Source of the DNA: Psammoneis japonica
Taxonomy: Eukaryota
DNA length: 64,000 nucleotides
Assembly (NCBI GenBank): GCA_008632985.1
Contig: QPGO01000019.1
Coordinates: 372,001-436,000, forward strand
Direction of reading: 5' to 3'
In this document: positions 2 through 55,432 of the stretch, piece by piece
Numbering within the stretch: the first letter of the stretch is position 1
Layout: every line of letters begins with the position of its first letter
Made by a program: the position numbers and the translations under genes
The notes under the pieces: generated by a model
Told to the model about the DNA's origin: nothing
Databases searched by the model: none
The model's input: only the letters and a program-made list of their open reading frames with translations

Positions 2-2605
2 AAAAGAGAGCCACTGGACTACGTGGTTTTTGTAGATGATGATCAATACTGGATGCCGCACTTCGTCTCGTCTCTTGTTGGCAAACACAAACCCAAAGGA
101 ATGACAACCTGGTACGGGAAGAAATTTGAATTTCGGGACAATAACGGTCTTGCTGACTACTGGAAGTCAGCCATTACTTGGACCGACATTTTGAAGTCGG
201 ACAAGCCGTCAGTGTCAACGTTTACGTACGGTGGACCAGGAGGATCAATTATTGATGGTAATTTGTGGCTTCTGGACAACCAGTTACTACGTCTCAAGAC
301 GGATCTTTCGATGTTTCACAAGTACGATGACATCTGGGTATCGTACATTATGGATGGCCTTTTAGGATGGGAAGTTCGGCGCCTCTTGACTCCAGTGTGC
401 GTCGATATTGCTAACGTTCACACAAGCTTTTATGCTAAAAATGTTCTCATGCTCGTGGAAGAAAAGCCGCTCGCACGTCTCATGGAAATCAATGCACAAC
501 TGCGGAATGAGATTAAGGCCGTGGCCACATGGGAGTCGGCCAAGATCGACAAGAAGCACATGTTTCAGGTGATGCAACTGCGCTTTGCCTGGGATGTAAC
601 ATACGATCCCAAGGTACCCTCCCCCAGAAGAGGTAAAATGCAAGAGAAAGCATTGGATCGATTGTGTATCAGCAGCAATGACACCGATATTAAGTCACAC
701 CCGCTGTATGCCAAGGCTGAGTTTCTCGCGAAAGCTCAACCCATGAATGAGGAAATTCGGCACCAGTATCGCAACGTTCTACTCTTTCTGCAGCAACAAA
801 ATCTGACTCGAATCATTGTCTACGGCCTGCGTGTCTCCGACTTGACGCATCAATGGATTCACTTTGGTTGGTTCCGATCTTGGCTAGACATCATACTCCA
901 ATCAAACGAAGAAATGCAGCTGGAACTATGCTGGATTGACAAGAATGAGCTCGAGTCGGTTCCGCAAGACGCTTGGGAACATGCCCTAGTCATGTCATCG
1001 TATGGGACTGGTATTTATGGGTTTGATGACATTGAGCCCTTGTTTGTAAACTCGTCCATTTATATTTTGCACGTGCACGATGCGGGGGATCGAAAGGATC
1101 TTTCCTCTATTAAGAATGCCTTTCACTGGTATCGATACGAATACACCAACAGTTTCAAAGAGAAGTACAATGATGGGCTGTTTCTCGAGTGGGCGACAGA
1201 CCTCAATCCATTCGAAATTGAGCACAACCGACCAACAGCAGATAACTTGACTTTTGCTGACAAGAACAAGGGAATTGTCCTAGTTGGTACGATTTGGTAT
1301 CGAAACAAGGCGGAATGGGAGCACATTACACACATTGCGAGTAGCCACTCACTTGTCTTTCACCAATATGGCCGAGTCTCGACTGACATTGACGACATGG
1401 AGGGACCATCCTTTGTTCGTCACTCGGGTTATCTTGGCCATAAGGCGCAATACGAGACGATGCGCGACGCCTACTTGACACCTGCAATTCAAGGAGACGG
1501 ACATTTAGTTCGTGGATATGTACCCTGTCGTATTTTCAAAACTGTTTCTGCCGGCAATCTGGGTGTTTCCAACAACAGGGCGGTCGGCGATCTCTTTCCT
1601 CCGGAATCCATTGTCGTGAGGCACGGGACTTCTCGTGATGATTTGAACTTACTCATTGCAAACGCAATCGAGGCGCTCAAAAACAGTTCGCAGCTGGTTG
1701 CCAGAATCAACGCTGCAATGACCTATGTTCAGCAGGAGCACACCTATCTTGCTCGTTTCAACAGTTTTGCAAATTTCGTCAAAAGCACCCAACGAGAAAG
1801 AGAGGCGGAATGTCACGACACCTTGGATGACATTGCCATGGTAGACTTGGAAACCGGCACTCCTCGATGCATGAGGTACGAAGATAATCACTATCATATC
1901 ATCATGGCATTGTTGGGAGGAGTTCCTATGAAATTTGACAACATGACTGCGATTCCACCCCTGCAGCGCGGCATGCTGCGGCTGCTGGGCCCGGTTGTCA
2001 AGTGCATTCCGACCAAAACAACAACATGGCGGCCTGCCAGCATGATGGACATTTCTTCTGAATCAAAACCGCGCATTTTTGAAAAGCTATCCAATGTTAG
2101 CGCTGCGTGCTCAGCATGTTCCAGGCATCGGCGTCCCACCACCAAAGCGTGTTTGCACATCGCCAGGGCGAGGGATCGACGGCTTCTTGACTGCAATCTG
2201 GAAGAGTTGTGTGACACATTGCTGATTGAGGATGGTATGGATTTTTGCACGCTTTGGAACACGTATTTGGCTTATGACACCATCGTCTCGATTCACGGTT
2301 ATCAATTGACCTTGGCCGTCCTGTCTAAGCCTAGCCATTTAGTTGAGGCAGCATGGCCGGGATATCGACCTGAGTTTTATGAAGAATTGTCTGGTCTACT
2401 GGATGTGGATTATTCCTTTACGTTTGTGCACTCGCCAGAGGGAAAATTTAATGAACGAAACAAAAGCAGTGAGAGTTGCTTCCACGATGTCAAGTGTCGA
2501 AGAAAGGAACGTGCGAAAGACGCATACTGCGACACGCAAGATTCCAAAGCTGCGATGAAAAACATGGTGCGCCAGAACATGTCGCTTGCGAAAGCAGTTC
2601 AGTAA
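2..2605 (+). CDS. Multi-domain glycosyltransferase-like protein, 5'-truncated by the window edge (GT-A/GT2-like + Glyco_trans_1_2/CgeB-like + GT61-like regions)
   Basis: Frame is open from position 2 (KREPLDYVVFVDDDQY). DDD and DDIWVS motifs are GT-A-like; GYVPCRIFK...EHTYLARF is CgeB/Glyco_trans_1_2-like; C-terminal IVSIHGYQLT is GT61-like. Normal Tyr and TpA content. Confidence 0.75.
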   Translation, partial: KREPLDYVVFVDDDQYWMPHFVSSLVGKHKPKGMTTWYGKKFEFRDNNGLADYWKSAITWTDILKSDKPSVSTFTYGGPGGSIIDGNLWLLDNQLLRLKTDLSMFHKYDDIWVSYIMDGLLGWEVRRLLTPVCVDIANVHTSFYAKNVLMLVEEKPLARLMEINAQLRNEIKAVATWESAKIDKKHMFQVMQLRFAWDVTYDPKVPSPRRGKMQEKALDRLCISSNDTDIKSHPLYAKAEFLAKAQPMNEEIRHQYRNVLLFLQQQNLTRIIVYGLRVSDLTHQWIHFGWFRSWLDIILQSNEEMQLELCWIDKNELESVPQDAWEHALVMSSYGTGIYGFDDIEPLFVNSSIYILHVHDAGDRKDLSSIKNAFHWYRYEYTNSFKEKYNDGLFLEWATDLNPFEIEHNRPTADNLTFADKNKGIVLVGTIWYRNKAEWEHITHIASSHSLVFHQYGRVSTDIDDMEGPSFVRHSGYLGHKAQYETMRDAYLTPAIQGDGHLVRGYVPCRIFKTVSAGNLGVSNNRAVGDLFPPESIVVRHGTSRDDLNLLIANAIEALKNSSQLVARINAAMTYVQQEHTYLARFNSFANFVKSTQREREAECHDTLDDIAMVDLETGTPRCMRYEDNHYHIIMALLGGVPMKFDNMTAIPPLQRGMLRLLGPVVKCIPTKTTTWRPASMMDISSESKPRIFEKLSNVSAACSACSRHRRPTTKACLHIARARDRRLLDCNLEELCDTLLIEDGMDFCTLWNTYLAYDTIVSIHGYQLTLAVLSKPSHLVEAAWPGYRPEFYEELSGLLDVDYSFTFVHSPEGKFNERNKSSESCFHDVKCRRKERAKDAYCDTQDSKAAMKNMVRQNMSLAKAVQ

Positions 2606-2739: not shown

Positions 2740-5395
2740 CGGGTGCAAACATCGGCCATAAATTTTCGACCGTAGAACTTTGTTTATTTCCTCTACACAA
2801 AATTGCCAAGGTCACTTGGACAATTCACATGACATCCTCTACACAAAATTGCCAAGGTCACTTGGACAATTCACATGATAAAGAGTTCAGACTGCTTCTT
2901 GTCTAGACTCCCCATGACTTTTTTGCTGTGGAGAGTTGAGAGTTGCAGCATTTGTCATTGTGGGAAAGTGAAGTGAGGCACTTTTCAGGCATGCTTGCCA
3001 CATCATCTGCTGCATCACTTTGGCCCAAGAAGTGGTTGTGTGAGTTCTGATGTGCCACCCTGCCTGCCATCCTGGTGGCACTGAGCCAACTTGACACAAC
3101 CCCAGCTTGAGGCTTCTAAGTGGCACCTGCTGTGGTCCCCTGCCAGACCTTGACATTGTTGGCTGCTGCAAATGTCTCAGTCAGAACAGGGTTGGTGCCA
3201 ATGGTGCTGAGGTGATGTTCCTGTGCAGTCATTTCATTGAAGCCTTTGGAGCAGTTTTCCAAGCAAAAACCCATCAATGGAGTTGCTTCATGGCTGGATG
3301 TCATGCATGGTGCAAACCAGTGGAATTTTTGTCTCCCTGTGCTGAGCCAAAAGGTGGACTTGACTGGCTTGGGCCAGTCTTTTTCAATGACAGTTGGCAG
3401 TCTGCCATTCTGAGGTGCTCGAGGCCTCTTGCTGCATTGAAGGTGATGCCCACAGGCCACAATGCATGGGAAATGTCATTGCAGTCATGTGCCGTGTGCG
3501 TGCCACACACTTGAGATTCATCTCTCTTGCAGGGGTGCAGTGCACAGTGCATGGCCCACAGACTCATCTGCAGATTGGCGCCATTCTTGTCCTCAGCAGC
3601 TGTGTGCCACATCACCTTGCATGAAGTGCAAACCTTGTGGTCATTCAGATGCTGCAGCTTGTTCTTGACTGAGTTGATTCTCTGCTCATCTGCTGGTGTT
3701 TTTGATGCAACATTGGCAAACCTGGGCAATGGCAGGGAGACAACAGCATGTGCAGCTGCAACAGCCACCACCCTCCATGGCATTTGGCTGTTGTTGCACA
3801 GCAGTGTTGAAGAACACCCATCAATGCAAAATTGCAATGTGGACAAAAGTTGAGTGGCCAGCACAGTGGTTGTGTCAATTGCTGTTTCTGTTTTCTGTTG
3901 TCGCGCATGTGCTGCTCTTGCACTTTGATCAATGTGCAAATGATCAAACCACATGGCTGGTTTCAATGCTGCAAGAATTTGCAACCACAATGAGTGCCAA
4001 CTTCATGCATCAAATTGGTGCCATTGCTGTGCAGCAACTGCATGGCAGAATGACAAACTGTGGGCCAACACTCTCACCCAGCAATTTTTGAAAACAATTG
4101 CTCATGCCGTTGCCCTCACTCTGTGATGACTTTTAATTTTGGAGGGAAGTGGTGTCCCAAGTTCAACCATGTTGCTCTGTGTCCATGATGAGTGCTCAAA
4201 AGTGTGCCAGAACAGTGGGCGCTGTTGTTGTCAAGCACCAAACTTGAACAGGTTCTGAGAGTCTTCTGCTTCTCAAATTTGGGCAACTCATGCACCTGAA
4301 AATGCATTCTCTCATCAACTCTGACTTGATGGAACGTGCGACATTGTCAAAAGTCATTGGCATTTGTGCTGGCATTTGGGTTGGCCACACGCAGAGCAAC
4401 AGCTTTGACAAAGTTGGCAAAATGTCCTGCATCCATGCACAACAGAGAGCAAACCAGAAAGAATTGTTGTGATGTTCATGTTGGGCATGTCTCAATGAGT
4501 GAGCTGCTGGTGACAACAAGTGCCATGAGCTTCTCATCATCACACAATTCTAAAAAGTGTGCCAAAATGATGTCAGTTCCACCACTGCAAATTCTTTGTC
4601 CTGCATGATGTGCTCCTTCTGCATCTTGGTGTCTCATGTCCCTCCCACCACCCCACCACTTGGCAAAGTGGCCACTGGTGCCAAGGATTTTTTGTGGCAA
4701 GTCTGTCACAAAAAGCAGAAGCTCCTGCACAAACCTGTGTGAATGCCTGCAGCAATGAGTGGTGCAAACACCAAAATTGGGCTTCTGATTGCACTCAAAA
4801 TTGTCAAAGCACCAGCGACTTTGCCAGATTTCAGCACACTTTTGTGGGGAGCTGTGTGCATCTGTGTTCAAAGTGGACAAAAGAACAAATTCTCTTGGTG
4901 GTTCAGGCAGCCCAACAGAGAGGACTCCAGCCAGCTGCTCAAGTGTGGGTGTGTCCAAAAAATGAAGATGCTGTTGCAACCATTGCCAAGTGATTTTTGG
5001 TGGCATTTTGGGGCTCTGTGTGTGATGCGTTTGTGTGGAAATTGTGCAAATGCAGGTGCTGCAGTGCAGATGACAAGCATGGCAAAGAGATGAGCTAAAT
5101 GCATTCAAGACAAGGGCCAAAGACCAGCAAATGGAGAGCCCAAAAAGAAGAAAAAGGAGACCAGGAGACAACAAGTGGCAATTGAGGACAGAGAAAAGAG
5201 AAACATTTTGAGTTGGTGCAATGTTTTTAAAGAAGAAAGGTGTGTGAAGGAGGAAGGAATGCATGAATCAAATGCAAGCAAATGAACAAACAAACAAATC
5301 AGCTCCACACATCCACAACATTGACAGCATCAATCAATCTGATCATTTTGTAAAAATTTGAACTCTGCATGTTTGTCAAGAGCTGTTTGCACCTG
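2740..5395 (-). mobile_element. Heavily degraded repeat or element with a decayed minus-strand ORF; family unknown
   Basis: Nearly devoid of both TpA and CpG. Broken minus-strand ORFs at 3301-3990 and 4476-5264. Possible 12-bp terminal inverted repeat cgggtgcaaaca (2740) / tgtttgcacctg (5384-5395); this is weak. Confidence 0.35.
2789..2878. repeat. Tandem duplication, 46-bp unit x2
   Basis: tcctctacacaaaattgccaaggtcacttggacaattcacatga occurs at 2789 and 2835. Confidence 0.9.
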
Positions 5396-5779
5396 TCTTT
5401 GCATGGCTGATCATTGCCGCCAAAAAACACCTGATCTTCAAGCAAATTGGGTGTTTGTCAGTGGCTTGCCTTCTAAAGTGCTGGCTCTCCAAAGCAGAAG
5501 GGCCGCGGCAGTTCAGTGTTGCATGATGTGAGCACACTTTCCAAGCAAACTTGCAAGCATGCATTCTGCACAAAAATCCTTGCAGCAGAAGACCCTGTGT
5601 GCCCTCTGCCCTGCACATGCTCCCACTGTGTGCTCAACATGCCTTGGACACAACCTTTTTGTTTGGGGGTGGCAATGACCAAGAGGGACCCAAAGCTTGT
5701 TTTGTGACATTCTTGCCAGGCCAAAGCCCTCCTTGTCATTTGCTGTCTCCACTGCAGCTGTTCTTGGCCATTTTTGCCT

Positions 5780-6160
5780 CATCTCATCTGACAGTGGTTG
5801 TGCCAAACTTGGAGTGCAACTGCAAGAACAAACACCATGACTGCACTGAACAAGGCAATCTGAGCCAATTGCTGACAGCACTGCGTTGGCACCACATTTG
5901 CCAAGTTGTCAAGATGATTGCAATCACAATTCAAACAACCTTGTGCTTCCAGTTGCTTCAAGAAAAGCATCAAAGGTTTGCCAGAGTTTGCTCCTCAATG
6001 TGCTCCTGCAAGACTTTGGGGTCTCTCACCTGACTGTGGTTGCATTGAATTTGAGGCACAGCTGCAACAAACACCATTGCTGCACCCAACAAGGCAATCT
6101 GAGCCAGTCAATGACAGCACTGCATCAACATCACATTTGTCATGTCGTCAAGATGATTTG
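5780..6160 (-). pseudogene. Two degenerate tandem copies of the 3' end of the adjacent SLC35B transporter gene
   Basis: 6001-6160 aligns to 6283-6455 and shares caaacaccattgctgcacccaacaaggcaatc exactly. 5780-5925 is a more diverged copy. Many differences are CG->TG/CA and TA->TG/CA. Confidence 0.8.
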
Positions 6161-6282
6161 AAAATGCAGCTGGCCCCTCTCTCAAGCGACAAAAAAGAAG
6201 GAATCAGCGTCACCACAAAGACATTCTGTAAAGGGGGGCGTGGAATTAGAATGCACAAACATGCCTGAGCAACCTGTTTAGT

Positions 6283-7662
6283 TTATTCCTGCAAGACTTC
6301 AGGGTCTCTCGCCAGGCTGTAGTTGCGTCGAATCTGGAACGCAACCGTAGCAAACACCATTGCTGCACCCAACAAGGCAATCAGGGGCAATCCATGTCCA
6401 AAGACAATCGATGACAGCACCGTTGCCATCATTTGCCGAGTCGTCATTATGACTGTAAAGACTACTGGTCCATACTCTCGAATCACATAAAAGACACAGA
6501 GTTGACCGACGCAAGAGGCAAACGCAGCTTTTGAAAGGTACTTGAGTGCAACATGATTTTCCTTAAGAAAGTCAAAGACCACACCAATCTCGCCGGATGC
6601 AACGAGACTAATGCTTGTAAAGGAAATGGCAAAAAGGTTGACTGCCATCATCATTTGGAATGGGTCAACATTGCGTCGCCCATACGTATTGTATATTTTC
6701 CTTTGCCACTGACTGGTGAATGCATCACAAAAGAGAAAACCCAATATAAGTAGGTATCCAAGGAGTGAGCTACCACCCATATCGTTGAGAGCTTGAAAGC
6801 GACTTGCAGCTGAAAAGATAATTACGCCAATGGTAATCACGACGGCTTCCATGTATTCTCCCCACGAATATCTGGTGCCATTCAGAAGCTTTCCCACAAT
6901 CATTACCGATACAACCTTCAATGACTTGGAAACCATCATGACGGGAAATGAAATCAACCGGAGCGATGAGTACTGAAAAAGGCTGCTGAGAGTATTGCTA
7001 CAAGCACAGGGACTGAAGGCCCGAAGCGGAGACTTTTGGAAACTTCCCGAGAATCCGCGTTGATAAAAGACAACAAAAGAGCTCACAAGTACCGCAGCCA
7101 ATCGATTGGTCCATACGCAAAAGGCGGCAGAGGGAAATCGACCGTTCGGAACGCGATCCGTGGGTTTGAAATCCGTCGTCATGATGAGCTCTTTTTGGTA
7201 TCCCCATATCAAGTAAGACACCTGTAGGGTAGCAATGGACAATACAAGAGTAATTGCGCTCTTGACAAATGCACTGCTATGATCCCCACAGAGCAAAATG
7301 CTTAATCTTTCAACCAAGTCTTGTTCTTCGCTGCTTTCGGTCAATCTGTTACTCGTGCTCATATTATTTTCCTCCGCATCCTCAGCATTGACTGAGACTT
7401 CCGGCAGAAACCATTGTACAACTCTGTTTAGTAAACCCAGAAAATTTTGGTTAGTTCCAGCTCCGTACTCTTCTTCATCAACATGTAATGGCTCCAACAC
7501 TCGGATTGTCGCCAGCTCCTCTGGGTCCAGGGTTTCGCTGTTTGACCCTGACGGTGATGAGCCATCAGCTACTATTTCGTCGTTTGTGGGAAGAAGAGCT
7601 TCTGCCAATGTACTAAAAGTGTAAACAAAGGGATGGGAAATGCGTTGTAATGTGTCAGACAT
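6283..7662 (-). CDS. UAA-family nucleotide-sugar/PAPS transporter (SLC35B2/PAPST1-like)
   Basis: 459-aa multi-TM ORF with family motifs FQYSSLRLISFPVMMVSKSLKVVSVMIVGK, DAFTSQWQ and GQLCVFYVIREYGPVVFTVIMTTRQ. Confidence 0.9.
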   Translation of the reverse strand: MSDTLQRISHPFVYTFSTLAEALLPTNDEIVADGSSPSGSNSETLDPEELATIRVLEPLHVDEEEYGAGTNQNFLGLLNRVVQWFLPEVSVNAEDAEENNMSTSNRLTESSEEQDLVERLSILLCGDHSSAFVKSAITLVLSIATLQVSYLIWGYQKELIMTTDFKPTDRVPNGRFPSAAFCVWTNRLAAVLVSSFVVFYQRGFSGSFQKSPLRAFSPCACSNTLSSLFQYSSLRLISFPVMMVSKSLKVVSVMIVGKLLNGTRYSWGEYMEAVVITIGVIIFSAASRFQALNDMGGSSLLGYLLILGFLFCDAFTSQWQRKIYNTYGRRNVDPFQMMMAVNLFAISFTSISLVASGEIGVVFDFLKENHVALKYLSKAAFASCVGQLCVFYVIREYGPVVFTVIMTTRQMMATVLSSIVFGHGLPLIALLGAAMVFATVAFQIRRNYSLARDPEVLQE

Positions 7663-10600
7663 GTGGTTTCACACGAAAATCACACGGCGTTGGCTTCCGT
7701 TTGCACAAGCAACCGCAGCGCGATAGTTTCTCAGAATAGCAGACGTCGCGCAGGCACTCTTGAGCTCCATTTTCTTCATTCGAATTCAATGCAGACATCA
7801 TGGTGGATTGTGCTTTCCACTGTAAAGTAAAGCAGGAACGTCTCAATCAGTGGCTCTGACAGACAACAAAGCGGCGGATAAAGATAGATGGTGCGCAGAG
7901 GGATAAGCTGCTGGAAAAAAACGATTGTGCTGCTGCGGCACAACTTGATGACAAGGCGACCCGGCGCCATGTGGTCCTGTGCATTGGGGGCACAGACAGA
8001 CGCCACCCGCAGCAGCACATGCATGCATGCATTGCACTGCCACAGATGCCCAACACCAAAATCACAGTCTCGATGTGAAAAGCCTTCAATGACACCAATG
8101 TTGTCTGACTTCATTTCAAAAACATTCGCTTGTCCACTCGTGTTGGTAAATTTCAAGATTCTCTCGCTCTCGCTCGATTGCTCAAGAACAACAACCAAAA
8201 GCACAAAAACCCAAAACACCGGTCGAGTCAGGTCCCACGGTCGGACACACCCAGCATGAGGAATCACAGACAAGCCGGCCAGGCAGATGATGATGTCAAT
8301 GTTGCAGCATGATGATGCTCAGGGCAACAAGCAGGCGTGACAAAATCACATCATTGAAAGTTGAAAGTTGTGAGCGAGTTGACGATGGTGGCGGCGGGAA
8401 GAAGCGAGGTGTCTCGCAGTCACGGATGAGGACGATGTCTCCACGGAGTGTCTCCCAGTCTCACCCCTGTCCCTGCTTTTTGAGTGCTTCTCAAGTGTTG
8501 CAAGACTTAAAAACAAGATCCAATGGCAGATGTGTGGCTCAAGCACAGCTGGCAAACGTCGAGCTTGTGAGCACAAACGCAGAAAACTGCCACATGGTGT
8601 CGCTCCGTGCATTGAAAAACATGCATTGAGCTCCGTTTTCCACCTCAGATGTCAACTCATGCCAACTTGTTAATGACCACAGAGGACAAAATTTCCCCAA
8701 CCTGCCAAAATTGGGACAAACATCGAACGATGGTGTCGGGTGCTGTCAGCACGCTTTGAAAGATTTGCCATCAAGCACAAACTCTTTGCTGCCCTTGCAA
8801 TGGGTTGCGAGCATGCAAGGTGAGAGTTCATCTCTTTTGCCATGCATGTCTCTGCTGAAATTACAGTTGTCAATCTAGAGCCACCTGGGAGAGAATCCAA
8901 CTCCACCTTGGCAAAGGACCTGCTGTGTGGATCGGTTTCAAGAACCCCACAACAACTCCCACACGATTTTCATCACAAAAAGGGAGACAGAGTGGACAAT
9001 CTGCCAAACTGCCGTGATTCAAACTGTCGCTCAGCCGGCAGCTGCTTGCAAAGGTGGAAACTGTCATGTGACAATTGCTTTGCCACAACACACCCAGAGT
9101 GGGTCATTTGAAACTTGAAGACGAGGAGCCCCACAAACTCTTTCGATTGACCAACGACTCCATTGTCATTTTGCAGACTGGTGTTGAAGGGACAAGAACT
9201 TGAATCCCCACCTGCACACTGGAATCTGTTCAATTCCCCATGTTTGTTTCTTTGTGCATGCAACAAGGCTGCCACTGCAGGACTCATGGTGACTTCATGT
9301 GACACCACACAGATGAATCCAATTCTGTCAGTTCATCAGCAACTCTTTGTCATGTCCTTTCTCAACCTCACTTGCCACTGGAAGTCACACTTCCTCCCTC
9401 CATTGCTCCTGTGAGAACCACATCCTCCATCTTTTTTACCTTCCCAATGGCTTCCTCTTGTTTGGAACTTCCGTCCTTTCCTGTCGCTTTGTGAAAGGCA
9501 AGTTGCAAAATGAATGCACTTTGCATGTGATTTTCTTGGTTTTGTCATTGCTTGCGTGTCCTCTCTTGATTCAAACAGGTCTTTGTGTCATTTTTGAGTG
9601 CTCATTCCCAACCCCATGTTTGAATTTCTGTCAACGTTCCACTGTTTTGAATTTTGTGCCTTTGTCAGCCAATCCAACACACCAGTGAAGATTGCAATGT
9701 CATTCAAATCAATGTCAAACAACATGTTGCATCTCCTTGTGTCAGTGCATGCATTGTGCCTGCTTCCTGATGCAACATCTGTTTCACTCGGTTTGCCAAG
9801 TCGTGTCAAACCTCCTGTTTGTTTGCACAAATCCATGTCGCTCATTGTCTCATGTCAATTCATCCCTGTCTTAACAGGTCATTCTCTCTGCTTCCCCGAC
9901 ACCACATCTCTCCAATTGCTCTCTCTGTTGCCCAAATTGTCCAACCCACTTTCAATGGCTGCCAAAGGGTGTCATTGTCACTGAGATGTGGTTGCTGTGA
10001 GTCGCTCCCATTGTGGGAACGCGCGTTCCCTCTGCTGCAATCACATGCCGCCAATTGATGATCAAATTGGTCATTTTGCTGGTGGTGGTGTGGAATCACA
10101 TGGTGGTGCGGCAAGCTTTGCCTTCTTTGCCGAGGTTGTTTGCACAACCCCACTCTCCTTGCGGCCCAAATTCGAAGCCCTTTTAATTTCCTCGACGTTG
10201 GTGGTGGTGTTGGCGGTTTTGCGATTGCCTGTCATTTGCTTGTTCCTGCCTGCAATGCCTGCAGCATCAAGTTCCACCACCCCCGTCATGACTTGGGCTC
10301 TCAGTGGTGCAATGCCATCTGGCACAACCATGCCAGTTGCTGTCCCACCCTGATCAATCAGGGCTTCCTCTCTGAAGATGATGCTGTGCGTTGGTTGCGC
10401 CATCTGAACAACTTAAAGATTTTCTTCAATGACTGCAATGGGCGAATGCTTTTTGACAACAATGCAACACAGAACCAACTCGAGGAGATGCTGTCCAACG
10501 AGTGTCCTGAAGTCACTGTCATCATTTCGTTGGGCGTGATGTTTTGTGTGTGTGCCCACAAATGGAGGCATGGAGCATTCTTTGTTCCTGCCTGTCCAGA

Positions 10601-13630: not shown

Positions 13631-14388
13631 ATTGATGCCAGCAGATTGTTGGCAATTGGCGTGGAAGTTGGTGGTGATTTAAATGGAAGTGACAAAGATG
13701 CACGCAACAGCATTCGAACTCAACGCCTGCAGGATCTTGGATGTGACATTTGCACAATTGACAAGAGGATGCGCTGTGCTTCCTCACCAAAGCACACAGA
13801 GTGCGATGTTCTAAGTTTGCACAGATCAGCAGAGTGGAAGAGATTGTCCAAAGAGACAGAGTTCGACCACATTTGCTTTGACTGCATGTGTTCAAACCCG
13901 GTGCATCTCTCGGCTTCAGTTCCAAAGGGACCTTTTTTCCAAGATGCACTCAGGGAGCTTTGCGGTCGCTGACGGATGATGGGATGTTCTTCTTGCCTGC
14001 GCACAATCTTGCGTTTTCCGAGTTTTGGATTGAATGGAAGAAACAACGTGTGTCGGAAGAGCACCCAATTCGCTTCTTGCATGAAGAGCAAGCACACGAC
14101 GAGGTCCCCATCCTTCGAGACGAGGCACAAGTGGACATCTCTGCCTGCAGAAAGTTTTGCACAAGGGAAGAATACATTGAGGATTGTGAGTTAAAACACA
14201 AAGAAGTGAAACGGCTCACACAAACAGGTGAAGCTGCATTGGCACATTTTCCAGATTTCGGGGGTCCAGTCAAATGCATTGGATTAACTGGAAGAAGAAA
14301 GGACCCTTGCTGTGCACCAGTTTTCACCGGTGACAACTGTGTGCATTGTCCAACATGCAGTCTCAAGAGACATGAGCGTTTTCTGTGA
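13448..14388 (+). pseudogene. Frameshifted cargo-like ORF, possibly a SAM-dependent methyltransferase fold
   Basis: EFDHICFDC (FDxIxFDY if TpA is restored) followed across a frameshift by LTDDGMFFLP resembles class I methyltransferase strand-4/5 motifs. Speculative. Confidence 0.3.
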
Positions 14389-14424
14389 TGCCCACATTGC
14401 AGGCCAGCTCCCATCCGGAATGCT

Positions 14425-16897
14425 GTGCAGTTTGATCTTGACTGCAAAGACGTGCCTGACTCAGCATGTGGAACAAACAACAGCAAGAAAACCAAGGAAG
14501 AATCTCTCCTCCAGCAAATCAAACAGTGCAACACCAATCTTGTCAGCTGTTGGAGGCAGAAGGACCAACCACATGGGGTGGGTGGCAAGAACTGGGGTTT
14601 GTTGTTAATGCGCCCCAAAAGCATCAGCAAAAATTTGAACAACAAAAGAGAACTCAAGCGAAAATTCTGCCTGAAACAACCTCACCGGAAGTCCAACAAG
14701 CTGTCTGATGCGTTCGACAACAACATTCCATTCATTGAAAAACCAGGCAGGGAGGGAACAAGGTGTTCCCTCGTCATCCACTTCAAGCCACATGTTGTGG
14801 CACATGGCGCGATGGGTCCGAATGCTTCAAAGCAAGTGTGTCGGCACCTTCAAAGCAAGGCAGAGATTCTACGTTCGGATGCCAACCACCCACACAGGGC
14901 AAGTGATCCAACTCATCCACTCGTTTTGAACCCAGATGCAATGGAGGGAATTGCCGATGATGCCGTCTTCAGGCAGCGCAAGTTTGACAAAAGAATTCTT
15001 GGATCAGGCTTGTCAACACAGCTCAGAACCATTGTTGAACAGGGGCTGAGCAGTGGGTCAGCAAGAGAGTTTTTACTTGCTGCAAAGTTTGACCATTCAT
15101 TTTGAGGGACTGTTGCCAAAGATTTTGGCATGAATGGAGTGCTTGCTCAAGGTTGGAGCTGCCATGGTGGATCAGGTGTTGCAAGGCCTGGAACGACAGA
15201 AAAGGAAAAAGACCTCTCTCCAAGATGATGCAGACAGTGGATTTTGCAACTGACCGTGATTTTGGTTCATGTTGTGTGCCAAAAAGCTTTGCAGGGAACA
15301 CCAAGGTCTTCCCAAGGGGAAATGTCGGAGGAAAGACGAAGGTTGTCTGAGAAACACCAAGTCTGGTTGGGTTGCCCAGAACGATTGCAAGGTGTGTTAA
15401 AGCTTGATGAGGCAGGATCTCACATCACCGGTTTTGCTTTCACACACTTCGATGGGGAAAATGAGTGGGAATTCCTCTTGGATGACATTGGCAACTGTGT
15501 TGTCTTCATTGATGATTGGCGGGATTACAACATTGGTGAAGATTTGGTGGACAAGCTGAAAAGGCATTCGGTCCCCATCACCAACACCACGTTTGACCAT
15601 CTGTCGTGCAACAGAGAGATTGTCAGAATTCAGCTACGAAAGCCACTGTTCAAGACGGATTGTGAACATGCAAATGCCCTGTTCGAACAACTGGAATCCC
15701 CGACAGACAGCTTCAACCTTTCCACTGTGGAGAACAAAGATGACGTTCAGTGCGCTGCCCAGTGTGTTGGGGATCACCTGCAGCGATTTGACAGTGGCGA
15801 CCACAAAGGCATGTTGGGATTGCTTGTTGATGAAGGCAAAGACAGAGACCTTCTCCTGGGATCAATCGCCCACAGCTGGTTCAATTTCACATTTCACTGT
15901 GAGGGGCACGTTGCTTTTCACCATGGAGACGAATTCGCGGCATTTGTGGGCATGGAATTCAAAGGGTTTTCCTCTTGATGCTCTTGTTGCATTGAGAGAA
16001 TCTGTGAAACCCGAAAACCAAGAATCTGTGAAGACTTTGTTGCAGAAAAATGAGATGGGATTGTTGCATCACCGATTGGTGTCGATGATGAAGCAACTGA
16101 AGAACAACGGTGACATGAACGGAACAACGTGTTTGACGTTACAGAGATTTCAACACATGGATCCTTCGTTGACCAACATTGAGGAGATGCGAATCTACTG
16201 TGCTTTCATTTCCAGTCAATTTGATGTTCTGCGGGCAAAGGACACCAATGGAAGTCACAAATCTGCCAGGGAACTTTTGTTTTGTCGCGAAGCCAGGAAG
16301 AACGAACTGCCAAAGCAGTGGCTGCCAAGCACAAGGTTGGGCGATGTGTGCGTGGCTTTGACGATCCAATCGGCTTCCGTCATGGGACAAATCCCCCCTC
16401 AAAATGCAGCAGTGGCACACATGTCCAAGGGTGATTCTGGATTTCATCCATTTGTTAACATGTGTGTTGTTGGGAAAGAAGCACACGCGAGAGGCGAACG
16501 GATCTCCTCGTTGAAGGCAAGGGAGGTTGTTCAAAATGCAGTTGAAGTTGCAAGAAAAAATGGCAGAAGACCAACTTGGGCCAAATGTGACCAACTGGGC
16601 TGCAGGAAATGTCGATCGATGAACAACAAGTTGCGCAAGGATCCATGCCACCTCGTGTCGAGCGAGCGGGGTGTGTCACCCGTTCGCTCTCTGGAACATT
16701 CGAACAAGTCGACAAGCGGTTTGTGGCCTGACAAATTGGAACACAGGATTGAATGTTTCATTTGTGATCAATGGTGTGATTTGTCAACTCATGCCAATGT
16801 TTGCTCTCATGTCAAGTCAAAGCATGACTTGACAAAGCAGAAGGGTTTGCTCCAATTCCGAGAATCGAAACTGAGCGGGACTGACCAGCACTTTTAG
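14425..16897 (+). pseudogene. Degraded long ORF(s) of unknown function with a C-terminal C2H2-like finger
   Basis: Overlapping ORFs 14425-15105, 15244-15978 and 15593-16897. Ends with CFICDQWCDLSTHANVCSHVKSKH. Confidence 0.4.
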
Positions 16898-17175
16898 ATG
16901 TGTCAGCATGCCATTGCTCTTCAATGCACTCACTGATGGAAGGAGCAACATTGCTCTTCAACGTGCTTGCTGACAGAAGGAGCAACAATGAGTGGTGCCA
17001 ACAGATGCTGTTGGACAGGTTGACACACCTTTTACAGCAAACTCATTGGAACAAAGACAGAAGGCTTAAAAAACATTTAAGAACATTTCCTTTTTCCCAA
17101 GGCACGTTGTCGTTTCTCTTTGTCTCGCTTCCTGCATTTGTCTGGGTGAAGCTGGATCACTTTGTTGGACAGGAA

Positions 17176-20100
17176 TTAATTCGGCCAGTCATTGTGTCTG
17201 TCTGCAACAAACAACAATGAGTTCGAGCATCCCAACACTTCAATGTTGTCTTCATTGCAGTTGTCAGGAACAAGGACAGAGAAACCACCCATTGCTGTTG
17301 TGTCTCTGCTGGCATGCCGAAATTTTGGGATCATCTGAGAATCTCTGCCATGACCAACAGTTGTTGTTTCAAGTTCCCAGTGCTCGACCACACCGTTGGA
17401 AGACTTGTCACGTGGCGTCTTTGTCTGTTCCTTGCATGACTGTCCTGCGGCAAGCGGCGTTGTTCCGTCGTCAGCTGACACAAAACCAGGGAGCACAAAC
17501 GGGCACCTTTTTTTCTGACCAGTTCCCTCTTCGTGCAAGACCCTGGGTGTGTTGCACCACAACCCATTGTTGTTGTAATTGGGGTGTGCACGCATTAAAA
17601 TCCCTTTCTCTGGCATGGCAAACTCCGAGCAAACAACTGCTTCATTGTGCTTGGCGGAAAGTTCCTCCGTTGGCAACAACAAAAACTCAAGCAGGGTGGA
17701 GTCCAATTCTGCAGTTTCCAGGATGACACGGATCTTGTTGCTGCCTGAACACTGACAGCAAGTTTGGGCAGTTCTGTTCACATCAAACAAGGGGTGCATC
17801 AATTTTTCTTCAGAGGAATTTACGCTCGCCTGTCCAACCGTGGAAGGGATGAGAAGGCTGTGTGCCTTCTCAAGAACTGCCATGTCATGCAAATGAACAA
17901 CAAGTTGGTCCAAGAAATTGTCTGCACCCAATGCAACCTGGCAAGTTTTTGCCGGAAGCTCAGCCCAGAACTTCAGGTGACTCTCTCCAATCATGGCAGA
18001 GAAATTCGTAATCTGGCCACAAAGGAAAGAGTCGATGATGAGATGCAGCATAGAATGGAACTTGGCAGTCCGGAACAAATGAGTGTTCCTTGCACGACAA
18101 AGGCATGCTTTTATCTTGAACATGAGCAGGGCGACTCGGCACTTGAAATCCACCTTTCCTGTTTTTCCATGGAGACCCTTTCTGTAGAGACAAAACAAAT
18201 GGAAAAGCAGCATGTGATGCAACAAGTCCAACAATTCATCAACTCCACAATCGATGGATTTTTTGGCTGTCGTTTCGTCATCTGCTGTCTTCATAAAAGT
18301 TTGAGGAAGTTTGTTTTCCATTTCTGCACAGATGACAGTGCTTGGCAATTTTGACTTGGTGAGAAGAAAGTGCCGTCTGTCTGCACACCTTGCAAAGTTG
18401 TCCCGATCATCTGCCGAATCAACGACAAGACCATGTGGTCCGGGTGTCGACAATTGTTCAGGTGAAGTCTCAACAGCCCGTTGTTTCCGTCTCAACGATT
18501 TTGTTTCATCCCATGCAATCTTCTGGCACAACAAAAAGCGATCGTTGTCTAGTTGCTTGGAAAATGGTTTCCCAAAATTCAGAAAGGCAGTGACGATGCA
18601 TCTGTTGCATCACACAGTTTCGGTGATGGAGATCAGATGGGTCGCAGGCGACATCAGACCATGTCTCTTTAGGAAGTGCAACCGGCACATTCTCATCAAC
18701 CGGGCTTGTGTTTGTTTTGCCGGTTTGTTCATTGGATGGTTCAACAGGATCAGTGTCCTCATCGTCGGGTCCACTTTCTGACGATTTGGTCAATTGTTCA
18801 TCTTGTTGCTTCTTTCCTTTAAAGCCATCAGCCGTCTTTTTCTTTTTGCTGTCAAAGGTTGGATCGCACCTTTTTTCCAGCAGTTTTCTGCCAGTGTGTG
18901 TGTGACCAATGATTGCAAGTGCAAGAAGCATTCCCATCTTCTCATCACACACAAGTTGACTGAGTGTGGAAAGTCCCCAGTTAACTTGAATTCGCAGGCA
19001 GTCACGTCTCTGACCTGGACGACAATGGGATGTGCAGAAATGCTCAGCTGCAATCCGGTTGCACTCCTCTTTCTGTTTGGCAGACATCTCTCCTGTGATC
19101 ACCTCCATCATTTGAGGGACAATGCCCACCTCCAACACATGCATCATGTCAGCAACAGTCATGCCAAATGCACCACGTGGGTTGTCGCCCATGTCAAGTG
19201 GAAAGCAAGCATTGTCCACCGCGTGCTGTCCAAACACTTTTCTCAAAATTTTGGAGCATGCAGTCATTCGGCAAATGAGGAAGGAAGCCAGCTCAGTCTC
19301 AGCCTTTTTTTTGATGTCATTGTGCGATGCTTCCGGGAAACGCTTTTAACATGCTGGTGCCAATGGCTGTTGTCATCCTCTGGATCTGGGCCCAATGCAG
19401 CTGCAGTGAGCAACTCCATGAAAGCTTGGTCAAAGAATTGGCAGACATGGAGGGGATCATCAGAACGGTGGGAGGGCACATGGCAGTTGTGAGACAACCT
19501 CTTGGTCTTGCTTCAGCCCATGACTCTTCCACAAATGCATTCTTGATTGAGGATGTCCCCCAACAGGGAGTTGCAATGTGTTGCAGCTCTGACACAGCGG
19601 CATTGAGTGCCCATCATTGCACGAACAATGGGTGGATTTGCCTGGCAATGAAGCAGACCACGGAGAACCTCCTTGAGAATGCGGTGACAGTTGGCAACAA
19701 CAAGGCACCCAAGCTTGTCTTTCTTGTCTTTCCTGTCCAAATTGGGCATGAATCCAAGTGGATGCCAACAACGGCAGTCACAGCATGCATCCTCTCGAAT
19801 CATGGCAAGTGAGTGCATTGCAGGCTCCATCCCATGAGGATTGACCACATTGGCTCCGGTCTTGTCCAAGCAATTGACAAGGTGAGCGTGAAAATCAGAG
19901 GCCATTTCCTTGGCATTGGAGCAACGTTGTTGCCACTCGCCATCACCCATGTCTTGACTTTGAGTGGACAATCACCAGTCACCAGGACAATCCGGGAATG
20001 ACATCTCAAAACCGTCAGCCTGGCTGGTGCTGGGATCAAAATTGCCGTCAGTGGGGGGTGGCGCATGAGGTGACCAGACATCATTTGGATTGACCTGCAA

Positions 20101-21398
20101 CTTGGAAAGATCATGGAACACTGGCTCGGTGAAGACATCCTGCAAGGTCTCGGTGAAACTGCAAACTGGGAAAGGTGGGGAGCGACGATGTTTGGGTCCA
20201 CTCTTCTGTTGCTGTGTTGGATTGTTGCATTCTAGCATCACAGCAGCAGTGCGGGGGAGAGGAACATTGGGAAACAGACCTGGGAGTTGCTTCATTGCCA
20301 CGGCGGCAGTGATGGGTGGCTTTGACAAATCCAGTCTTTTTTCTGCATGCTCTTCATGCAAAATTCTCATTGCTTTGTCAACAAAGTCAATTGCAACACC
20401 TGACCGACAACACAAATGCAGCAAACGTGCCATGGGTGCAATGCTGGGTGAGCAGACTGGAGAGGTGCATCAAAATCCTCATCGGGTGCGACATCACGCA
20501 GCGGGCCAAGAGGGTTGTGTTGATCGAGGGAGGAAACAGGCTCTTCCATCGGATGGGAAATTGAGGTGGGCCCACAACTGCCATCGCGATGGTCGGCTCC
20601 AATGAACTCAGGAACATCCACAGGACTGTCCTCTCCAAGGGCGGACACACCATCATCTGCAAACAAAACAAATCGGCAGGCGTTTTGGGAGGCTGCACTG
20701 GCGGCAGCAACGTTGGCGGCTGAACGCAATCGACCAGAGCATCTGACGGAGGGTGGGCACAGTCCATTTCCGGCAGAGGGAGGACAAGCTGGAGAAGAAT
20801 TGTCCGTTGGTGTGGGAGGAGATGGAGCTGGATTCCAAAGGACTTCGGGGAGGGGAGGAGGGGGTTCGTCATCAGAGAAACCAAACCCAGCAGGATCATC
20901 GTGGTCATCCAGTGATTCATTGTCTGGAGGGGGAAGTGCATTGGCGGCAGCAGAAGATGCGGCATGCAGGCAAAGGGACATTTCCTCCTTTTCATGGCAG
21001 GGCAAGTGCTTCTGTAGATGAAGGGCGATGTTGGAAAAGAGGACACGGCAATGGGGGCATTTGGGTTTGTTGGTGTTAGATCCAAGGGAGCCAACGGAGG
21101 CGGAATCCAGAGGATGAGAGGAAAGAGATGTTCCGCCGGATGAAGAAGACAACTGGGTTGCACGGCGCAACTGTGTCAATGGGGGATGGAGACCAGATGC
21201 TGCAGTGCAGTGCCAAGACAGGTGATGCTGCACATTGTTTTTGGAGTCAAATCCACGTTGTCCGCAATGAGGACAACTGAAAGACTTGGTGGAAATGGCG
21301 GAACGGAGGCAGTTAGTTGCAATGTGCCTGCTGAGACCACATTCGGAAAAGAAACCAGTTCGTTTGCACCATGGACAAACAAGACCATCAGACAACAT
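17176..21398 (-). pseudogene. Plavaka-like (CMC/EnSpm-related) transposase with N-terminal C2H2 zinc fingers; multiple frameshifts
   Basis: Motifs in order: LDKTG, HGMEP, PLGFMPNL, GDILNQECICG, ADMMHVLEVGI, KFHSMLH and GESHLKFWA..PAKT. N-terminal CPWC, CPHC and CPHC fingers. Confidence 0.75.
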
Positions 21399-22591
21399 GG
21401 CCGATGTACAGAGATGAAGGAGTTGAGAAAAGAATCGAAAGGAAACAGCGTGTGCAGCAACAATCACTTGGGGATGCAGTGAGGGCAGAAACACAGAGAA
21501 ACAACGTGCGATCGACATGGAAGGTGTCATGGATGGACGGGAAGGAAGGATGGAATGGGCAGGGAGAGAAAATTGAGAAGACAATTAGAATCTACATTGA
21601 CAGATGTGGGCGGCAATTTTGATCCAGAAAGTTGATTAACACACAATCCAGAAATTAAAATGGAGCTGAACACACACATGAGGCTCTTGTCGGATGGGGG
21701 GGCAAATGGCCAAATTGAGGAAAACAGATGTTTGTTGTTGAATGTTTCAGAAATGCTGACTTGACAAATCAGCACGATCTTGGATTAAAGGGAGAGAATG
21801 TCGGGTTTCATTTCAAGAAATCTTGATGGTCAGTGCAGCACCTGGATTGTTGGTGTCCCAGATGACTGGTGAGCTGCACAGCGGGGATCTTGCATCAGAG
21901 TCTGGGTGGCCACAACACCGTGAAGATCAAAGTCTGGAAAACAAAAGTCATGAAAGTTGGTGGCGGTCCTGCTGTTGGATTTATGACAAGCATTGAGGGC
22001 TCCAAAGCTGAGCATTCTGATGTGCCACCTTGTTGTCTCACCTTGGCTTGGGCTCTCCATGGAGAGGCAGACAACTCAGTCCACAGTGCACCAACAGAAA
22101 GCCTTTTCAATGCTCCAACTTTTGTCTGCTGGTGCTTGTCAATGCAAGTGATTTCATCCATTTCCCATGCTGCAACAAGAATCAATGGTGGGGAAGGACT
22201 CTGCAAATGAAGCAACAAACATTGCGCAGCAGCAATGGATCACAATTGACTGGACCATGAATGTCCTTGGTTGTGCCAGGGATTGTTTGATCCAAGGTTT
22301 GTGAGACCAATGCACTCACACATGTGTGCGCTGTTGACCCTTCCAATGATCCTCTGATGCTGGATTTCAAAAGCCAGTTGGTTGGAAAGTCCATGAGATC
22401 TGTTGAAAGCCAATGTGGGTGGTGAGAAAGGAAATGTCTTCCAGGAGTCCCGGTTGAATGCTTTTCGCAAACCTCCATCTGGACGTCCTCCTCGGTCGTG
22501 AATGTCAAGTGTCAATGCCCCAATGCTTGCGCTCACTTTTCATTCTCAAGCAATCAAGACAAAACCTCAAGCAATGCAAAACCCTGTCACC

Positions 22592-36868: not shown

Positions 36869-37347
36869 TCCTCATCTGCGTAGCACCAACAGATCAATGT
36901 CCTTCGTAAGCGATAGAGAGAGTCCTTAACAAGGAAGTAAGTTTGCCACGTAAGATCGTCGGATGAAGAAGATCTTGTTGTCAGAGATGGAAATGATGCA
37001 GAGATACACGTGTACCATCAGCGCAACGATTTCAATCGCGGTTGGGTGCGTCTGATGACGAGTATGGCTCCAACTTCCGAACGATTTTGCGGGGGGGGGG
37101 CGCTGTTTTTACTTAAGGCCCCCCCACGAAATTCAACCTCATTTAAGCACCTGTGACATCCCCCCCCCTCATACAAAAAATCCGTAGAAGTGACAGTCGT
37201 CGTCGCGCGCCATCTTTTTGGCCTTTTTCTGGAACGCTTTTCATAACAACGACCCTCATCGTTGTTGCAAGTGCGTGCTTCATACTTCATTGACACCTTT
37301 CCTTTTCAACAAGGGTTTGTCAAGAGCCCCTTTGTGTTCTCATTGCC

Positions 37348-40300: not shown

Positions 40301-40668
40301 CCTTCCAAAGGCATCAAGAATTGAATTCCGCACCGCCTGCCCCAATCCTCCCCATGCCGGCACCAGCTCTGCCATTGCTGCCTCTGCTGCCTGTTCCTGT
40401 AACAAATTTGCCAATGTCATTGCAGCAACCTTTGGGCCCACCCACTGTTGCGTCGTCGATGCCACATTCAACCTGCTGCCAACCCGTTTCTCTTGGGACA
40501 GCGAGTTTTGCAGCATCTGCTCCTGTGCTGCCATCCGCTGTCACTCCAGCTACAAAGAGACGAAAGGTCAAAGAAGAAGAACACTGCTGTGAGGGAAGAA
40601 AAAATCATGTCGAAAATGGTCGTCGGGGGCGGGTCGCTCATGCCTTGTGGTGCAACCGAGGAAAGTAA
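37348..40668 (+). pseudogene. Putative DDE transposase (unit 1); frame open but Tyr codons almost all mutated
   Basis: Motifs FDHTH, HTDAWP, RLGSFHAIQR and KGESSLEKFH suggest D-D-(xxH)-E order (Dada/MULE-like, tentative). I find only two Tyr in 1106 aa. Confidence 0.6.
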
Positions 40669-40939
40669 GGCGTTCTTGGTGTCTTTTTGTTTTGTTCTTT
40701 TTTCCATTTGTGTTGGTGCACATCACATTGCCACTTCCCAGCATAGATGCATTAATTCAGGATTGGGATCCAACACAGTGGCAACAAACATTTTACACTT
40801 GTACAATTACACCGGTCCACCACACCAACCATCACCGCGCCGCACCGACCAACACCAACGGCACGGACAGCACGGACACCAAGGTCCCATAAAGCCGGTA
40901 GCCTGTCGCAGCCCCACAGCAGAAACAAAGGAACAGAAA

Positions 40940-41400
40940 CAACAAAATTGAGAACACGACAACAAAGAAACAGACCCATGACACTCGACACATTTCTGTT
41001 GCCTCACATCAATGCTTTTGGAGTGCCCTCGTGGTGCTTGTGGTTGATTGCACTAAGCAACACTGTCGGCCGAAAACAAAACAAAACACTGTCCAATTAA
41101 AAGGAACAGAAACAACAGAAATGTAGAAGGTGCCATCAAAGAAACAACCCCATCATGCTCGACACATTCATGTCACCTTGTCTTAATGATTTCGGTGCAT
41201 CCTCACAGTCCTTGTGGTTCATTGTCAGCAGCAATCTTGTCGGCGGCAGAAAACAAAACTCAAAACACACGCTCCATTTAAACACAATGGAAACAAAAGA
41301 AATTTAGGAGACACCAACAAAAAAATACAACCATCACACTCAACACAGTCTTTGCACCTTACATCAATGCTGTTGACCCTCGCATCGTCACAGTGATGGT
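40940..41400. repeat. Diverged ~180-bp subterminal repeats (about 2.5 copies, present in each array unit)
   Basis: Recurring ccatca..ctcRacaca...Yaatg...ttgtggtt.attg...tgtcggc..aaaacaaaac blocks. Confidence 0.6.
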
Positions 41401-41939
41401 CGATTCATGAACGGAGCCAGTCGCCATTGTGCTGCGAAGGTTCGAGGGTGGTGCGGTAAGTGCGCGTGAGGATTTTTCCTGCTGCATGCAGTGTCTTTTC
41501 TGTCTGTCCGTTAGCGAGTGGTCTTAAACGTTGCTGAGTCATAAATGGCTTGAAGACAAAATTGTTCTTAAATGTTGCATCGTCACAATTGGGGATTGCT
41601 GAGTCATAATTCACTGAAGGCATGATGTGATTGGCTGAAAATACAGCGCACAAGAATGGGACAACGGAAAGAGATTTTGCGGGGGGGGGGCGCTGTTTTT
41701 ACTTAAGGCCCCCCCCACGAAATTCAACCTCATTTGAGCACCTGTGACATCCCCCCCCCCTCATGCAAAAAATCCGTAGAAGTGACAGTCGTCATCGCGC
41801 GCCATCTTTTTGGCCTTTTTCTGGAACGCTTTTCATGACAACGACCCTCATCGTTGTTGCAAGTGCGCACTTCATGCTTCATTGACACCTTTCCTTTTCA
41901 ACAAGGGTTTGTCAAGAGCCCCTTTGTGTTCTCATTGCC

Positions 41940-44900: not shown

Positions 44901-45241
44901 CCGTGCCGCCTGCCCCAATCCTCCCCATGCCGGCACCAGCTCTGCCATTGCTGCCTCTGCTGCCTGTTCCTGCAACAAATTTGCCAATGTCATTGCAGCA
45001 ACCTTTGGGCCCACCCACTGTTGCGTCATCGATGCCATGTTCAACCTGCTGCCAACCCGTTTCTCTTGGGACAGCGAGTTTTGCAGCATCTGCTCCTGTG
45101 CTGCCATCCGCTGTCACTCCAGCTACAAAGAGACGAAAGGTCAAAGAAGAAGAACACTGCTGTGAGGGAAGAAAAAATCATGTCGAAAATGGTCGTCGGG
45201 GGCGGGTCGCTCATGCCTTGTGGTGCAACCGAGGAAAGTAA
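41940..45241 (+). pseudogene. Putative transposase (unit 2), disrupted
   Basis: CGA->TGA at 43260-43262 and a 19-bp deletion near 43407 relative to unit 1. Confidence 0.7.
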
Positions 45242-52110: not shown

Positions 52111-52441
52111 TGAGCATTGTTGGGTTGATTGATGAGTGATGACAGCACGAGAGTGAAGCCGACATTTTAGTTGGCAGAAAATTTACATTGAACATTCATT
52201 TTGAATGCACTCTCATGATGGGGTCTTTCAGCACAAAGTTGGAGCCAAGGGATTGTACACTAAAGTCTGGGAGCACAGCAAACGGAAGACAAACAGAACG
52301 CCAGTGCATTTTCTGTGCACTGTGACTTCCGGGTTCTTGCCGACTGTCGTGTGGAGTGCAAGTCACGATTGGTGAGTCGTGGGCAAAAATGTCTGAAATC
52401 TGTCCTTTTGAGAACGAAACAACACGGTGAAGCACGGGGCA

Positions 52442-55354: not shown

Positions 55355-55432
55355 AAAGAAATTTCTGCAGCAATCTTGCATCTGTTTCATTGGACAGCAA
55401 AATAAAAACCATTGGAACAGTTGAGGAACGAC

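Follow-up and report, generated by a model that had tools for sequence, protein, structure and literature searches.

Sequence evidence for two separate processes, one fast and one slow, that turn TA and CG into TG/CA in repeated DNA of the diatom Psammoneis japonica

The window and its eroded block

The window analyzed here is a stretch of 64,000 nt from the 91-Mb genome of the diatom Psammoneis japonica (contig QPGO01000019.1, positions 372,001 to 436,000; G000:C16:372001-436000), along which host genes and repeat tracts of equal GC content alternate. The repeat tracts have lost the dinucleotides TA and CG in favor of TG/CA, and comparison of repeat copies supports two separate processes behind these losses, a fast one at TA and a slow one at CG. 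The end state of both is seen in a block near the left end of the window, which lies between two live host genes:

2887..6270, no strand assigned: old block, single-copy by own-genome search and contig depth, in which both processes have reached their end state
2..2605, forward strand: live host reading frame of 867 aa, open at its 5' end, unmutated control left of the block
2789..2878, no strand assigned: perfect 46-nt tandem duplication at the left block edge
5782..6158, reverse strand: 3' end of the adjoining transporter gene, present twice in decayed form (~5782-5923 and 6004-6158)
6283..7668, reverse strand: live host gene for a UAA/SLC35B2-type nucleotide-sugar transporter, unmutated control

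A first-pass annotation had described the block as poor in both dinucleotides, and the counts agree: 21 CG (observed-to-expected ratio, o/e, 0.11) and 10 TA (o/e 0.04), with TG/CA at 1.94, compared with a CG o/e of ~0.96 and a TA o/e of 0.53-0.54 when the host gene at 1-2000 was counted in the same way. Against the host-level expectation the deficits have Poisson p values of 4e-37 (TA) and 8e-52 (CG). The fitted edges, 2905-6225 for TA and 2775-6145 for CG, lie ~130 nt apart on one side and ~80 nt apart on the other. Eight of the ten surviving TA stand in the context YTAR (Y, pyrimidine; R, purine) and two in RTAR, with none in RTAY or YTAY; in host genes, YTAR makes up 31 of 249. A contig of 3249 nt spans 2849-6097 at a depth of 66 (flanking genes, 56-63) with one letter different; judged by the contigs, the block does not come from an assembly error, and the assembly may itself have been made from that run. 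At position 3205 the public contig has C and the assembly T (CG versus TG), a CpG polymorphism within the block.

The decayed gene pieces give an impression of age. In 6004-6113, all five CG and both TA of the live transporter gene are now TG/CA, and 13 of 60 other positions have changed (a small sample); set against the 0.3-0.4% of the tandem array described below, this background suggests that the block is old. The live gene itself has named homologues in diatoms (Mayamaea, Skeletonema, Cyclostephanos, Thalassiosira). The annotation had treated the block as an insertion, a view that we could not uphold, as the block holds decayed pieces of the neighboring host gene and no recognizable transposable element (TE) gene. 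No Pfam family was found in its six frames with stops read as X, and one frame of 505 residues had 0 matches among 1.84 billion representatives. One block frame gave 12 weak, partial-length matches (29-40%) in the organism's own genome, where a DNA search with the block returned only short pieces (71-87%). A second decayed/live-like pair in the window, 22424-23145 and 25223-25943, is 70-76% identical, and the TA and CG of its live side have mostly become TG/CA.

The young array and family A

The region 37000-51000 contains 674 CG (o/e 0.78) and 188 TA (o/e 0.21). It is an array of three tandem units of ~4.59 kb each (37083-50834), 97.3-98.0% identical in pairs, and is considered young because the units differ by only 0.3-0.4% outside YR steps:

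37083..41672, forward strand: array unit 1 (family A), 54 TA and 224 CG
37348..40668, forward strand: open frame of unit 1, 1106 aa, 44-50% identical to five unnamed proteins
41673..46245, forward strand: array unit 2, 63 TA and 217 CG, broken frame
46246..50834, forward strand: array unit 3, 59 TA and 214 CG, broken frame

The annotation had called this array young, with CG largely kept and TA nearly exhausted. Its age and its CG content stand, and the CpG-rich motifs quoted in support were located at 38856/43429/48019 and 37200/46363. Exhaustion of TA is true of the coding part (TA o/e 0.08-0.23 in 1-kb windows) but not of the unit ends (0.25-0.51), and unit 1 holds about one third of its estimated original TA.

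The sharpest contrast between the two dinucleotides comes from unit 1 and a sister copy, C164a, which differ at 73 TA, 14 CG and 13 of 2373 other positions. Sixty-five TA are found only in C164a, 8 only in unit 1 and 46 in both, an imbalance with p 3e-12; the corresponding CG counts are 8, 6 and 219 (p 0.79). There are also 23 TG/CA swaps between the two copies. If these are read as double TA losses, the ancestor would have carried 165-177 TA at a host-like o/e of ~0.6, and the kept fractions would be 0.63-0.67 of TA in C164a, 0.31-0.33 in unit 1, and 0.97 of CG in both. For the youngest family A copies, TA loss per site was estimated at 15-34 times CG loss. Erosion in C164a is patchy, and its 3' 1.3 kb holds a TA o/e of 0.69.

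Across the family A series, kept TA, kept CG and background divergence were 0.89, 0.97 and 0.004 for C164a; 0.43-0.52, 0.91-0.96 and 0.003-0.004 for units 1-3; 0.27, 0.60 and 0.017 for the older copy C34; 0.11, 0.25 and 0.054 for C23a; and 0.03, 0.03 and 0.155 for C58, with TA loss understated throughout because the TA sites counted are survivors. Leave-one-out sites, for which TA was required in two other copies, were discarded as biased toward resistant sites and understating the rate; they were replaced by a TA-rich reference copy (L078, below) and by TG/CA-mixed columns. In the C34 copy (L011/L012), TA loss is skewed between the strands (57 TG to 26 CA, p 0.0009; 20:6 at RTAY), a feature absent from the other copies and possibly linked to transcription or replication.

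The loss of TA is also visible in the encoded protein. Tyrosine makes up 0.2% of the unit 1 frame and 2.7-3.7% of its five homologues, and in 18 homologue columns that are mostly Tyr, unit 1 has Cys or His in 14, Tyr in one and Phe or Thr in three. Such Tyr-to-Cys/His replacements are those expected of TA turning into TG/CA (TAY to TGY or CAY). The unit 1 protein may be transposase-like, a weak lead that comes from DUF6729 (P0001 scored 19 bits against the profile, cut-off 27). The atlas values for a Plavaka/DUF6729 identity of families A and B, the latter described below, were 0.93-0.94, at low recognition.

Family B and the recent twin

A second family and a recently duplicated or allelic stretch widen the comparison:

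13900..21865, reverse strand: family B copy, Plavaka-like, intermediate state (TA o/e 0.08, CG o/e 0.51)
46441..64000, no strand assigned: stretch matched by a twin on contig C164 at 99.1-99.8% identity, which gives the most recent differences

The age series of family B comprised the copy at 13900-21865 and 29 other loci. As a reference we used L078 (G000:C267:66341-69242; TA o/e 0.45; 881-aa open frame), with 82 TA and 131 CG sites, and the reference series was formed by 19 of the 29 loci, each aligning to at least 30 TA of L078. Against the Plavaka profile PF18759, L078 scored 23.4 bits, under the cut-off of 26.3. It holds 54 of 86 TA where other copies hold 1-15%. L078 lies at the edge of an eroded tract and adjoins host-like DNA, and is a candidate escape from silencing. 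Copies that kept 0.70-0.75 of CG kept 0.12-0.22 of TA, and those with 0.25-0.42 of CG kept 0.00-0.09. The seven youngest copies (CG kept 0.72) retained 24 of 385 TA outside YTAR and 58 of 151 within it.

The twin lies at G000:C164:138666-156200 (L010, L091, L159) and has two array units versus three in the window; the 8.4 kb of C164 upstream of it (L158) have no match to the window. Judged by this layout and by 13.3 kb of further C164 sequence, the twin would be either a recently duplicated stretch or the other allele, rearranged at the array. Between the twins of 50835-64000, residual TA differ at 5 of 137 sites, CG at 25 of 493 and other positions at 3 of 6674.

The repeat tracts also contain elements outside these families. 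A 400-nt element resembling a miniature inverted-repeat transposable element occurs at 53299-53694 and 59105-59500 and has at least 20 copies in the genome at 92-95% identity. On the reverse strand at 10848-12212, an eroded frame, possibly transposon cargo, gave weak matches to a 2-oxoglutarate-Fe(II) (2OG-Fe(II)) oxygenase (PhyH, E 0.0003) and to a WRKY19-type zinc finger; the surrounding repeat, with a summed contig depth 25-60 times that of a single copy, stands beside the Plavaka-like element.

Outcome, flanks and independence of the two losses

Both losses end in the same products. In 545 TA observations, 449 had become TG/CA, 82 were kept and 14 were something else, so that 449 of 463 changed TA are TG/CA; in 869 CG observations, 121 had become TG and 118 CA, pointing to both strands. 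Fixed changes from TG/CA back to TA are rare in old copies. The flank rules separate the two. In family B, TA loss varies with the nucleotide on the 3' side of the hit A (0.64 for C, 0.49 for T, 0.33 for A and 0.31 for G), and the same preference for pyrimidines is seen in family A (C 143/243, T 91/179, A 49/215, G 53/163). Site by site, 29 of 36 asymmetric TA sites follow the pyrimidine rule (p 0.0003), compared with 28 of 62 CG sites. Outside TA there is a weak excess of A>G at VAY (V, any base but T), the change being about threefold more frequent where a pyrimidine follows (134 of 980 columns) than otherwise (66 of 1391). CG loss has a weak flank rule of its own in both families, 0.26-0.29 after A/T versus 0.17-0.19 after C/G.

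No local coupling of the two losses was found. CG was lost at 24 of 90 sites beside a kept TA, at 141 of 494 beside a lost TA and at 72 of 256 with no TA near (27, 29 and 28%), and a tie of TA loss to nearby CG was rejected, TA loss being independent of the distance to CG. The products at neighboring TA and CG sites were likewise uncoupled (33/67, 31/66, 12/24, 37/71). Processive action on a single strand was rejected from the share of same-product neighbors (44/81, 35/65, 20/45, 14/25). Judged from these alignments, TA loss and CG loss are supported as separate processes that both end in TG/CA. The annotation had anticipated as much in proposing a fast TA and a slower CG conversion, which the copy series of two families, the flank rules and the lack of coupling all bear out.

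The same order is seen across the genome. A sample of 378 1-kb windows was taken from 38 stretches (two of 380 windows were dropped for N). A TA o/e below 0.2 was found in 152 of these windows (~40%), spanning CG o/e values of 0.02-1.01; 94 of the 96 windows with a CG o/e below 0.5 also had a TA o/e below 0.2, and the converse fails. TA is lost first, and CG loss without TA loss is almost never seen. CG and TA depletion did not scale together at all ages, the outcome that would have contradicted the annotation. The two processes share territory and are decoupled in rate, not in place. Host genes are spared and erosion is confined to repeated or foreign-type DNA, the block at 2887-6270 being itself single-copy. 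The surviving TA of the sample fit the flank rule too, with RTAY down from 2318 of 7610 to 13 of 311.

Dating of repeat copies

The annotation had further suggested that the ratio of the two depletions could give a relative age for each insertion. A clock built on Alu elements is reportedly due to Xing et al. in 2004. Here, against transversion distance to L078 (n=19), rho was -0.90 for CG o/e, -0.66 for TA o/e and 0.004 for the CpG/TpA ratio; without near-duplicates (n=17), the values were -0.88, -0.73 and -0.002. Conversion of CG to TG/CA rises with age (rho -0.96 with transversions), and TA adds nothing once CG is given (partial r -0.20, p 0.41, versus -0.82 for CG given TA). The explanation that both rates are constant and that TA:CG measures insertion age has one observation in its favor, namely that the log-retention ratio drops from young to old copies (3-19 to 1.0 in family A, 6.8 to 1.8 in family B) and separates very young from old ones, but this drop is TA reaching its floor. 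We give this explanation hardly any credence, and for family B it is refuted by the lack of any relation between the ratio and transversion divergence. The ratio fails because TA is soon down to a floor of resistant YTAR sites, because lineages of equal age differ about threefold in TA loss (65:8 in TA against 8:6 in CG), because erosion is patchy within C164a, and because old residual TA change no more than CG (5/137 versus 25/493).

As far as the aligned copies indicate, CG retention alone gives a rough age, TA is useful for the youngest copies only, and the TA:CG ratio is no clock. How rough the CG measure is can be judged from its weaker correlation with a majority-based background (rho -0.68, n=30), from the spread of 9-44 CG losses per background difference in family B, and from the recent twin stretch, where 36 of 702 CG differ compared with 6 of 8940 other positions; distance to L078, moreover, mixes subfamily divergence with age.

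A proposed mechanism and its rivals

Direction, relative rates, flank rules, local independence and shared edges can all be read from comparison of the copies. We propose that one silenced territory is subject to two distinct processes of mutation, and together with the agents named below this is a reading that we hold to be probable, with considerable room for doubt. The first process would be targeted and would convert TpA to TpG on either strand (read as TG or CA), site by site and nearly always by transition, with a preference for a pyrimidine after the A (TAC > TAT > TAA, TAG). It would remove most sensitive TA before 1% background divergence and then stall on YTAR, at a dose that differs between copies and along a copy. 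The second would turn CpG into TpG/CpA more slowly and more steadily. The territory is probably heterochromatin that is CG-methylated like diatom TE islands, and its CG loss the deamination of 5-methylcytosine (5mC); such islands, and DNMT5a in diatoms, are described in the part of PMC9998398 drawn on here. Sparing of L078 in both TA and CG fits a shared targeting mark. The genome has 27 matches to the C5-methylase family PF00145. Several C5 DNA methylase matches (L044, L045, L046, L050; contigs C297 and C301) lie in TA-erased DNA with a TA o/e of 0-0.09, and the frames measured there have a CG o/e of 0.62-0.94; they are themselves targeted copies, perhaps mobile or viral in origin.

For the TA agent, we see an even chance of a TadA/ADAT2-type deaminase acting on DNA adenine, which is favored because editors built on TadA act best at TAY and because A>G outside TA is higher before a pyrimidine. 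The accessible text of PMC10879117 gives TAY as the best context of TadA-derived adenine base editors, and that of PMC8052359 a TACG/UACG motif. The genome has an ADAT2-like gene (L056) that carries the Asn cited for DNA activity, a gene expected in any eukaryote, and a TadA-like gene (L053) with Asp at the position cited for DNA activity. Several observations weigh against the proposal. L056 and L053 look like ordinary housekeeping genes and may be tRNA editors; no expansion was seen in the genome (9 and 5 matches); and none of the three weak loci inspected could be identified as a DNMT5 with an SNF2 domain. In sequence, the action of a deaminase looks the same as damage to the T opposite. 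The two processes are not wholly independent, as L078, compared with five close relatives, is spared in both TA (63-70 to 1-2) and CG (32-38 to 11-14). Finally, the copies share ancestry, and pooled counts are not independent events. A more specific version, with CG-methylated repeats recruiting a TadA/ADAT2-type enzyme of the host as a natural adenine base editor that deaminates TAY, is tentative and on the unlikely side. If true, new transposon copies would lose their Tyr codons to such an editor well before 5mC decay counts, and a TAY defense would be shared with Rhizaria and so possibly be old in the stramenopile-alveolate-Rhizaria group (SAR).

The agent could instead modify thymine. A 2OG-Fe enzyme, TET/JBP-like or other, would oxidize T in R-T-A to hydroxymethyl- or formyl-uracil and cause it to miscode as C, formyl-uracil being able to pair with G. 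Every count fits this explanation equally, RTA being the complement of TAY, and the high-copy window repeat at 10848-12212 has the weak oxygenase match (PhyH, E 0.0003). The flank order, on the other hand, agrees with TadA-derived editors; the genome gave no Tet_JBP match, but the same search was blank in every control genome and is therefore uninformative. We consider thymine oxidation improbable. A single enzyme of dual specificity that deaminates the A of TA at a high rate and the C or 5mC of CG at a low one would account for the common territory, for the sparing of L078 in both dinucleotides and for the high CG loss relative to background in the recent twin stretch. A preprint on the alga Bigelowiella natans (bioRxiv 10.64898/2026.01.13.699255) cites, in the part considered here, ADAT2 enzymes with activity on A as well as C in DNA. 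The differing flank rules at TA and CG, the lack of strand or neighbor coupling, the divergence of C164a from unit 1 in TA (65:8) but not in CG (8:6), and the 210 of 211 A>G/T>C changes given in the same part of that preprint all speak against one enzyme, which we regard as distinctly improbable.

Still less credit is due to the idea that TA loss is a by-product of the repair of deaminated 5mC, by long-patch synthesis in which an error-prone polymerase takes part, as Pol eta does at WA (W, A or T) in antibody genes. It would explain common territory and edges, and A>G at AA is indeed slightly above that at CA and GA. Yet the WA spectrum of Pol eta has many transversions, and only 14 of the 545 outcomes here are other than TG, CA or TA; AA is not erased (o/e >1), per-site TA loss far exceeds CG loss, and TA loss is independent of CG distance just as CG loss is independent of nearby TA loss. 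This mutual independence already refutes the idea for the most part.

The proposal of two processes on one silenced territory has practical consequences. TA loss covers ~40% of the sampled kilobases and can be told from CG decay by its rate, its flank rule and its lack of local coupling; the preference for TAY defines a substrate with which to search for the enzyme; and a DNA adenine deaminase of natural origin would be of importance to both genome defense and base editing. Masking of TA and CG columns is needed in genomes of this kind, where repeat ages otherwise come out too high.

Comparison with known systems

Published TA-directed A-to-G hypermutation is confined, in a literature search thin on subscription papers, to one rhizarian alga, and no diatom report was found. 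In B. natans, TpA hypermutation of integrated viral DNA proceeds at a ~1000-fold per-generation rate, measured directly in mutation-accumulation lines, with 210 of 211 changes A>G/T>C at TA only and without CG loss; an ADAT2-type deaminase was proposed, not shown (Mettrop et al., bioRxiv 10.64898/2026.01.13.699255, as far as its main text goes). The terms 'CpG', 'diatom', 'trinucleotide' and 'flanking' do not occur in that main text. The two systems, so far as that preprint's text allows comparison, have in common that TpA changes only by transition to TpG/CpA, in foreign or repeated DNA, leaving TA-poor, TG/CA-rich islands, and that activity is uneven between lineages (here 65:8 for C164a versus unit 1, and 54/86 TA in L078). 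The present case differs in its host, a diatom; in its targets, which are DNA-transposon-like repeats and dead gene fragments; in the decay of CG in the same territory; in the measured TAY preference; and in that relative rates come from copies only.

Other systems share single features with the one described here. Fungal repeat-induced point mutation (RIP) acts in the context CpA, which it turns into TpA. It resembles the process in P. japonica in its repeat-restricted transition hypermutation, its sharp edges and its killing of mobile elements, as far as set out in the portion of PMC7296669 used; in direction it is the reverse, as RIP makes TpA by C to T, whereas here TpA is lost and CpA gained. 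The CpG decay of methylated repeats (PMC2695003, in part) likewise turns CG into TG/CA in repeats and grows with age, but in P. japonica this decay follows a far faster TA process in the same DNA. TadA-derived editors, as characterized in the passages cited above, share with the natural process the conversion of A to G best at TAY and a favored 3' pyrimidine in other contexts too; they are engineered and guided to their targets, whereas the process in P. japonica is natural and its requirement for a 5' T far stricter.

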